Positions 1 through 237 of a stretch of DNA of 237 nucleotides are shown in pieces; positions within the stretch are counted from its first letter, which is position 1, and each line of letters starts with the position of its first letter. Below the pieces are notes generated by a model. That model did not search any database, had not been told where the DNA came from, and saw only the letters and a list, made by a program, of their open reading frames with translations. The DNA is taken from the NCBI RefSeq assembly GCF_003334315.1, contig NZ_QOWR01000141.1; one strand, given 5' to 3'. This DNA comes from Escherichia coli. GTDB taxonomy: Bacteria > Pseudomonadota > Gammaproteobacteria > Enterobacterales > Enterobacteriaceae. Both the position numbers and the translations under genes were made by a program.

Positions 1-19
1 TGATAGAAACAGAAGCCAC
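1..19 (-). CDS. insA: IS1 InsA (transposition regulator and N-terminal part of the InsAB' frameshift transposase); first 6 codons only, CDS continues beyond the window
   Basis: GTG start at 19-17 on the minus strand, followed by GCT TCT GTT TCT ATC, i.e. (M)ASVSI, matching the InsA N-terminus MASVSISC. The start is 56 nt from the IS1 terminus, consistent with the known insA position in IS1. Only 19 nt lie in the window. Confidence 0.72.
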
Positions 20-26
20 TGGAGCA

Positions 27-45
27 CCTCAAAAACACCATCATA
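27..45 (-). promoter_or_regulatory. insA translation-initiation region: Shine-Dalgarno GAGG (30-27) and a candidate -10-like hexamer TATGAT (45-40) of the IRL-associated insA promoter
   Basis: GAGG lies 7 nt upstream of the GTG start, which is good spacing. TATGAT sits about 20 nt upstream of the start region. The insA promoter is known to overlap the IRL, but exact -35/-10 assignment here is my reading and not verified; no convincing -35 is seen at 17-bp spacing. Confidence 0.4.
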
Positions 46-51
46 CACTAA

Positions 52-74
52 ATCAGTAAGTTGGCATCATCACC
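52..74 (-). repeat. IS1 terminal inverted repeat (IRL, about 23 bp); InsA-binding end of the element
   Basis: The minus strand reads GGTGATGATGCCAACTTACTGAT, against the canonical IS1 IRL GGTGATGCTGCCAACTTACTGAT (22 of 23 matching). IS1 ends are established binding sites for InsA and carry an IHF site; I cannot place those precisely from sequence alone. Confidence 0.85.
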
Positions 75-237
75 GAATCTATATACTGAACCGGATTCAG
101 CGGATACTGATAAAAATTCCATCCCCCCTTCAGCCCAATCGGATCCTGAGTGATATACCTCCCCTGCAGCGGGTCATAATAGCGGTGGCGGTTGTAATAC
201 AGGCCGGACTCCTCATCATACTGCTGCCCCGGCAGGC
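53..237 (-). CDS. Rhs-family (YD-repeat) core protein, 3' end of the conserved core domain; ORF interrupted by IS1 at 74/75 and terminated inside it (probable truncated gene or pseudogene lacking its C-terminal toxin domain). 5' end lies beyond the window.
   Basis: Minus-strand frame starting at 235 translates without stops to [53 protein letters not shown], then S-VMMPTY and TGA at 55-53. The first 53 residues match the strongly conserved Rhs core C-terminal region ([10 protein letters not shown]...[11 protein letters not shown]...YQYPLNP) as I recall it from enterobacterial Rhs proteins. The other two minus-strand frames contain early stops. Codons 55-60 and the stop are IS1 sequence. Confidence 0.85.

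Follow-up and report, generated by a model that had tools for sequence, protein, structure and literature searches.

The question raised by this locus is what befell an Rhs gene whose conserved core runs, within one short contig, into the end of an insertion sequence: which Rhs module was hit, what of it was cut off, and by what route the two came to be joined. The stretch of DNA analysed here (the window) is 237 nucleotides long and is the complete contig QOWR01000141.1, in reverse complement, of the Escherichia coli draft assembly GCA_003334315.1. Our reading, to which we attach a probability of roughly 0.7, is that a copy of IS1 inserted itself, by transposition, at the terminal conserved motif of an Rhs module of the rhsC locus, one that carries the SMGL tip followed by ybfC, and that this was probably a simple insertion into an orphan of the ybfO type.

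The Rhs core end and its junction with IS1

The features on which the argument draws are the following, with positions counted from the first letter of the window.

75 to 237, minus strand: Rhs core, 3' end (its hyperconserved part, with the autoprotease), read in the frame from 235 to 77 plus bases 76-75; NCBIfam RHS_core and TIGR03696
131 to 145, minus strand: first DPxGL box, D-P-I-G-L, its Asp codon (145-143) being the putative first catalytic aspartate by equivalence to RhsA D1324 (PMC8765631)
77 to 94, minus strand: P-V-Q-Y-I-D, the first six residues of the terminal motif, its Asp codon (79-77) being the putative second catalytic aspartate from a spacing as in RhsA; the native continuation is S-M-G-L
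75 to 83, minus strand: TATAGATTC, predicted 9-bp target duplication, by analogy with the duplications of two comparable IS1 insertions (CAATGGGAC, CCAGGGATG)
74 to 75, no strand: Rhs/IS1 junction, from direct comparison with uninterrupted sequence and IS1 ends
53 to 76, minus strand: tail of the truncated Rhs frame reading into IS1, S-V-M-M-P-T-Y, then TGA at 55-53, from translation
1 to 74, minus strand: IS1 left end, element positions 1-74, oriented as the Rhs frame, from matches to annotated IS1 copies
52 to 74, minus strand: IS1 left terminal inverted repeat, 23 bp, GGTGATGATGCCAACTTACTGAT, from sequence comparison
40 to 67, minus strand: sigma-70-like site, ATGCCA, 16 nt, TATGAT, overlapping the IS1 inverted repeat; one site against 0.3 expected
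1 to 19, minus strand: start of insA, GTG at 19-17, then A-S-V-S-I..., IS1 position 56 onward, at the same offset as the annotated CDS

That the larger part of the window is the end of an Rhs core, as the preliminary description had proposed for the minus-strand translation of 237-75, is borne out by the curated profiles. The 54-residue translation aligns with positions 1205-1258 of the 1261 in NCBIfam RHS_core (NF041261) with an E-value of 2.4e-31 and 108.5 bits, a score over the 54 core residues that the window contains; the model's cut-off of 2000 bits applies to the whole protein (the ECONIH5 relative reaches 2654 bits). With TIGR03696, the RHS repeat-associated core domain, it aligns over positions 20-72 of 76 at 73.2 bits, which exceeds the curated cut-off of 32.5. 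The placing of the insertion at the boundary between core and toxin also stands, in that the curated core models end 3-4 positions past the junction and that different Rhs proteins, when their sequences are compared, diverge from the junction point onward.

Codon by codon, the minus strand reads CCG (94-92), GTT (91-89), CAG (88-86), TAT (85-83), ATA (82-80) and GAT (79-77), that is, P-V-Q-Y-I-D, just as it was first read. Uninterrupted copies run CAG TAT ATA GAT TCA ATG GGA CTG GCA, where the window has GAT TC|GGTGATGATGCC. After GATTC| the native Rhs sequence is AATGGGAC, which starts with A, and the window has GGTGATG, which starts with G, such that the Rhs/IS1 boundary is unambiguous; comparison with uninterrupted copies and with IS1 ends gives window position 75 as the last Rhs base and 74 as the first base of IS1. 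The boundary at 74/75 had therefore been set correctly, but IS1 does not follow the Asp codon directly as had been supposed, since two Rhs bases (76-75, TC) lie between. They open the native Ser codon TCA, and the first base of IS1 completes it to TCG, again Ser. A single minus-strand frame is open from 235 to the TGA at 55-53, and its product of 60 amino acids, which has been recorded one time only and on this very contig, is in GenBank as RCQ20512.1, 'RHS repeat-associated core domain-containing protein, partial [Escherichia coli]'. In a protein search this truncated product matched nothing but further short fragments of Rhs, all of which lack the SVMMPTY tail. Three further open reading frames, one of 30 amino acids on the plus strand (61-153) and two of 24 and 29 amino acids in other minus-strand frames, were rejected as unsupported and as overlapping the well-supported Rhs frame.

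The significance of where the frame is broken lies in the autoprotease that ends the core. In RhsA of Pseudomonas protegens the Rhs barrel ends in PxxxxDPxG(W/L/F), which is needed for C-terminal autoproteolysis; the catalytic pair is D1324 and D1346, and the chain is cut after W1350, four residues beyond the second Asp (PMC8765631). The Asp codons at 145-143 and 79-77 of the window are 22 residues apart, a spacing equal to that of D1324 and D1346, and alignment of the motif with RhsA would place IS1 a single codon beyond the second catalytic Asp, with three residues still to go to the expected scissile bond. In other words, both catalytic aspartates of the Rhs autoprotease are, on this alignment, kept, and the parts severed are the cleavage site and the toxin tip. 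The complete terminal motif, PxxxxDPxGL with a variable tip behind it, is absent from the window, where IS1 cuts after P-V-Q-Y-I-D-S. It had been stated at the outset that IS1 lies inside this motif, which is so, but the motif itself departs from the consensus: the native motif of the cut-off tip is DSMGL, with Ser replacing the consensus Pro of DPxGL (coordinates 8153-8173 in L001, 8175-8195 in L014 and 6014-6034 in L015).

The same DSMGL is also found in the full-length genes of O157 and E2865. A search of the literature found no self-cleavage test of the DSMGL variant. Of 5,426 complete E. coli genomes, 3,560 have the tip, each of them as a single copy; that a tip occurring in 66% of them has DSMGL, and not the textbook DPxGL, is a reminder for annotation.

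The remaining 74 bases belong to IS1. Read from 74 to 1 they are identical (74/74, E 4e-30) to IS1 copies, annotated as of the IS1A/IS1B family, in 364 E. coli records, and agree at 73/74 positions with the IS1 copies in L001 and L002. Neither this agreement nor that of the Rhs part is fortuitous. The inverted repeat of IS1 extends over 23 bp, and positions 74-52 share 22 of these 23 bases with the terminal repeat GGTGATGCTGCCAACTTACTGAT. In L001 and L002 the transposase CDS of IS1 is annotated as beginning 55 bases inside the terminus, and the window matches this arrangement, with six codons of it lying within the window. The sigma-70-like site at 67-40 is situated at what we take to be the expected place of the insA promoter.

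As to the form of the element, position 8 of the left repeat (window 67) is A, and not the commoner C of IS1A/B copies (GGTGATGATGCC). The variant is real, being contained in the exact 74-nt matches of the 364 E. coli records; A is the base that the right repeat has at the same position (GGTAATGA...), and it overlaps the -35-like hexamer ATGCCA.

Of IS1, the contig takes in positions 1 to 74 and no more. It is bounded by multi-copy repeats on both sides, by the Rhs core at one end and at the other by IS1, which occupies a median of 10 places per genome, and it is there that short-read assembly halts. It might be supposed that the contig is an assembly chimera of these two repeat families. Its length of just 237 bp and the repeats at both ends would suit such a view, the two samples listed for the contig may be two records of one assembly, and the exact junction found no match in 5,426 complete E. 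coli genomes, 100,044 GTDB species-representative genomes and JGI metagenomes. A chimera is nonetheless exceedingly unlikely, because the join coincides to the base with the end of IS1, as is expected of transposition and rare for a random misjoin, and because there is no shared sequence at the join to mislead an assembler. Short junction contigs bounded by repeats are, moreover, a normal product of short-read assembly, and that the site is accessible can be seen from a finished genome in which IS1 inserted independently 8 bp away.

The Rhs module that was interrupted

Over its full 163 bases the Rhs part of the window is identical (163/163) to K-12 ybfO, to rhsC of ECONIH5 and to the full-length Rhs gene of E2865; from K-12 rhsC it differs at 11 positions. 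Set against the classes of full-length genes, the window has 2 mismatches to that of O157 (a gene of 1,399 amino acids), 5 to the rhsB-locus class and none to E2865 and ECONIH5 (rhsC locus). As source copies, the O157 class, the rhsB-locus class and K-12 rhsC itself are ruled out by these single-nucleotide differences within 163 nt. Cluster-mates on long contigs (P0126, P0127, P0132 and P0134), considered as a source of genomic context, were rejected on account of their different tips.

In K-12, ybfO (b0703) is a silent orphan pseudogene with rhsC-ybfB upstream of it and, downstream, ybfC (b0704), the latter being, by its position, the presumed immunity gene. Such arrangements are known: orphan C-terminal tips with a partial core lie downstream of main genes, and a dissociated tip can be identified from the hyperconserved region (Poole et al. 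2011, PMC3150448; Jackson et al. 2009, PMC2935791). The 163 Rhs bases of the window are equally identical to orphan ybfO and to the full-length genes, with no base to tell them apart. We consider it quite probable, however, that the copy hit was a promoter-less orphan module of the ybfO type rather than a full-length rhs gene, because in a spread sample of the matching allele class (100/99.7%) 26 of 32 rows carry an orphan-type name as against 6 of 32 with the full-length name 'RHS element core protein', a ratio that comes mostly from the annotation names in those 32 sampled rows. Within the matching class the orphan fragments of K-12 and 2014EL-1343-2 and the full-length gene of E2865 were checked directly, as were, for the other two classes, the full-length genes of O157 and MLI108K3.

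Were IS1 instead to have hit a full-length, expressed gene at the rhsC locus, as found in ECONIH5, E2865 and O157-type strains, the event would not be without parallel: full-length genes with a 163/163 identical end do exist in ECONIH5 and E2865, the 3.7-kb rhsC of ECONIH5 has itself taken a comparable hit 8 bp away, and 6 of the 32 sampled matching-class genomes bear the tip on a full-length gene. As most of the matching class, K-12 among them, carry the tip as an orphan of the ybfO type (the 26 rows above), we regard a full-length target as unlikely.

The preliminary description had seen in the module a polymorphic toxin, often a type VI secretion or contact-dependent inhibition effector, and had suggested looking for a vgrG/PAAR/T6SS neighbourhood; none of the relatives inspected has one at this locus. 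No T6SS genes are annotated within the 5-8 kb flanks of six related loci with the same tip, where the neighbours are kdpFA(B), ybfA, ybfB/ybfC, ISAs1-type (H-repeat) genes, ybgA and phr, or nikE/nikR and yibA. Pfam has no family on record for the tip of 155 amino acids or for the YbfC of 189 amino acids (L004-L013, 3001-4034), and the literature on ybfO and ybfC yielded incidental mentions only and no functional study.

Two further observations concern the tip family itself. In NZ_CP117006.1 (L017, 1293-6058) it occurs, at 97.3% identity, on a full-length Rhs gene between nikR and yibA, which is the rhsB position, and a 'hypothetical protein' of 189 amino acids follows in the place of ybfC, such that the same tip is seen at two Rhs loci. 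Secondly, the run of C at plus-strand positions 123-128 (minus-strand codons AAG GGG GGA) comprises 6 bases in the window, K-12, L001, L002, L004 and L012, and the same homopolymer (around position 2945 in L004-L013) comprises 5 bases in seven other assemblies and 7 in one. An altered length of this G-run shifts the Rhs frame, with the consequence that the 155-amino-acid tip is called as a separate gene; the variation could be either long-read homopolymer error or real slippage.

Origin of the junction and its consequences

The simplest account of the junction is that an IS1 copy landed in the terminal motif; the core frame stops after seven codons that read into IS1. If, as is probable, this was a simple insertion with a 9-bp duplication of TATAGATTC, the remnant of the tip and ybfC would be displaced by 768 bp and no longer coupled to the core, the reciprocal junction should have the sequence ...CATTACC|TATAGATTCAATGGGAC, and the sequence expected at the right side of the insertion, duplication included, would be CATTACCTATAGATTCAATGGGAC. 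IS1 prefers targets rich in A+T. The last 25 Rhs nucleotides have 36% G+C against 62% in the core, and the local sequence thus suits this known preference.

Two finished genomes supply readable analogues. In ECONIH5 (NZ_CP026202.1, L002) an IS1 of 768 bp lies in the same orientation 8 bp further downstream, after ...GATTCAATGGGAC, with the duplication CAATGGGAC; beyond it come the remainder of the tip and ybfC. In 2014EL-1343-2 (L001) an IS1 is found 276 bp further downstream with the duplication CCAGGGATG, and again the tip remnant and ybfC are kept. The near-identical insertion in ECONIH5 also supports the earlier judgement that the event is not novel in kind. Traces of a reciprocal junction were sought by means of gene calls: 'MGLASKYG...' occurs in 869 blocks, of which 10 places were read, none of them with an IS1 end upstream, and the reciprocal gene call 'MESLPIDSMGL...' is absent from the records. 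Nor did the complete E. coli genomes, the species-representative genomes or the metagenomes yield the right-hand junction.

IS1 also promotes adjacent deletions. The junction might accordingly be the endpoint of such a deletion, or of recombination between IS1 copies, rather than of a simple insertion: a pre-existing IS1 downstream, with its left end facing the core, would have deleted the DNA up to GATTC, and part or all of the tip, and ybfC, would be gone. Suitable precursors exist, in that IS1 in the same orientation lies at several distances downstream in other strains (match spans of 245, 508, 587, 762 and 839 bases, in H15 and H1-H4), and in CP084683.1 an IS1 fragment is fused to the same Rhs module in a foreign neighbourhood, such that IS1-linked rearrangements do occur here. 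Both of the fully readable analogues are, however, simple insertions with 9-bp duplications, the target segment is rich in A+T as for a primary IS1 insertion, and nothing inside the window favours a deletion. We therefore hold the deletion route to be rather unlikely, and infer a simple insertion.

What the insertion would mean for the cell depends on the copy that was hit. As read from the motif and the frame, the junction separates the core from the toxin tip. The preliminary description went further and had the tip removed, which is unproven, the tip and ybfC being intact beyond IS1 in the two nearest analogues; it also had a polymorphic toxin inactivated, a claim that is unproven and probably overstated, and that holds only if a full-length gene was hit. 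In that case the product would be an Rhs shell with neither tip nor release site, and one contact-dependent toxin would be lost, with ybfC probably kept. In the more likely case of an orphan, no expressed gene would be changed, and what would be lost is a spare tip for recombination onto the main gene. Loading of orphan tips in this manner is documented for CDI loci (PMC3150448) and is reported for Salmonella Rhs (PMC3967940). With the orphan tip parted from its core homology by IS1, what the main gene would gain by recombination is a truncated end and not a new toxin. In either case the kind of event is already known, being an ordinary gene disruption, and it has little significance beyond the isolate. 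There is nevertheless a caution for annotation, namely that a repeat-bounded junction contig of 237 bp does not suffice to distinguish an Rhs gene that is expressed from a fragment of the orphan type.

Insertion sequences at Rhs core ends and comparison with known systems

Several features of the locus could be taken to suggest a more general role for the A+T-rich step between core and tip, namely as a preferred landing site for insertion sequences, where a parked element would act as portable homology or as a switch for uncoupling and reshuffling tips. Were this true, IS1 would be part of the turnover of the Rhs toxin repertoire, beyond mere damage to a gene. The hints are that IS1 inserted independently at two points 8 bp apart, in the window and in ECONIH5; that several truncated Rhs proteins read into foreign sequence at the motif or shortly after it; and that in the rhsC of another strain an IS5-family element lies 27 bp upstream from the equivalent Asp codon. 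Interruptions of the tip are rare: in ~15 of 3,560 genomes the match to its first 295 bp is split or partial. A landing site of this type seems to us very improbable, and the ordinary insertion set out above is preferred.

Other insertion sequences near Rhs core ends were recorded in their own right. In 2014EL-1343-2 (NZ_CP024228.1; L001, 5195-5215 and 6245-6262) an IS5-family element, with the end GGCTTTGTTGAATAAATCG..., lies in the main rhsC at ...WNFYQYP, between the two catalytic Asp codons and with a 9-bp duplication CAGTATCCG; at this one locus, two Rhs core ends thus each have an IS element nearby, and the two elements differ. In CP084683.1 (L004, 2880-2920) an inverted internal fragment of the right part of IS1 abuts the Rhs module at 'atcactcaggatccg', and a porin gene and genes of the proline-biosynthesis type (Aldedh, AA_kinase) replace kdp/ybfA in the neighbourhood, which suggests a rearrangement, linked to IS1, by which the module was moved or truncated. 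Lastly, P0005, P0009, P0126 and P0127 are partial E. coli Rhs proteins that extend to DPLGL or a few residues beyond and then continue in foreign sequence, such tails being ...EGANKRGNSSRLTQSFHFF, ...GKVRISGEILLG and ...DPLGVRSFS. We take EGANKRGNSSRLTQSFHFF and GKVRISGEILLG to be two frames of an IS5 end, and these proteins suggest further independent IS junctions at Rhs core ends.

The components of the locus are each familiar. There are published descriptions of IS1, of the core/tip architecture of Rhs, of orphan tips and of orphan toxin modules that contain IS elements (PMC2935791, PMC3150448, PMC3032704). The published cases of IS-disrupted orphan CDI/Rhs modules differ from the present one in that they cover CDI orphans, or Rhs tips generally, and not this IS1 allele at this base (PMC3150448, PMC2935791).

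With the aspartyl autoprotease of Rhs and TcC proteins, as in P. protegens RhsA and the BC components of Tc toxins, the window shares two Asp residues 22 apart in DPxGL...PxxxxD; in that family the motif closes the Rhs shell and marks the point of toxin release (PMC8765631). It differs in that the second box is natively DSMGL and is here cut after D-S, such that the scissile site is absent from the window, and cleavage is in this case a prediction from the motif.

Compared with the orphan module ybfO-ybfC of K-12, the Rhs part is the same at 163/163 nucleotides, and the native continuation SMGLASKYG... identifies the tip that was cut off, although K-12 ybfO is uninterrupted and without IS1. 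The comparable rhsC::IS1 allele of ECONIH5 shares with the window the tip module, the locus, the orientation of IS1, the terminal motif (there entered after ...YIDSMG) and a truncated core frame. There, however, the target is the long rhsC, the insertion lies 8 bp downstream, the duplication is CAATGGGAC and IS1 position 8 is C; with another insertion point, another duplication and another base at position 8, the insertion in ECONIH5 and that in the window are independent events.
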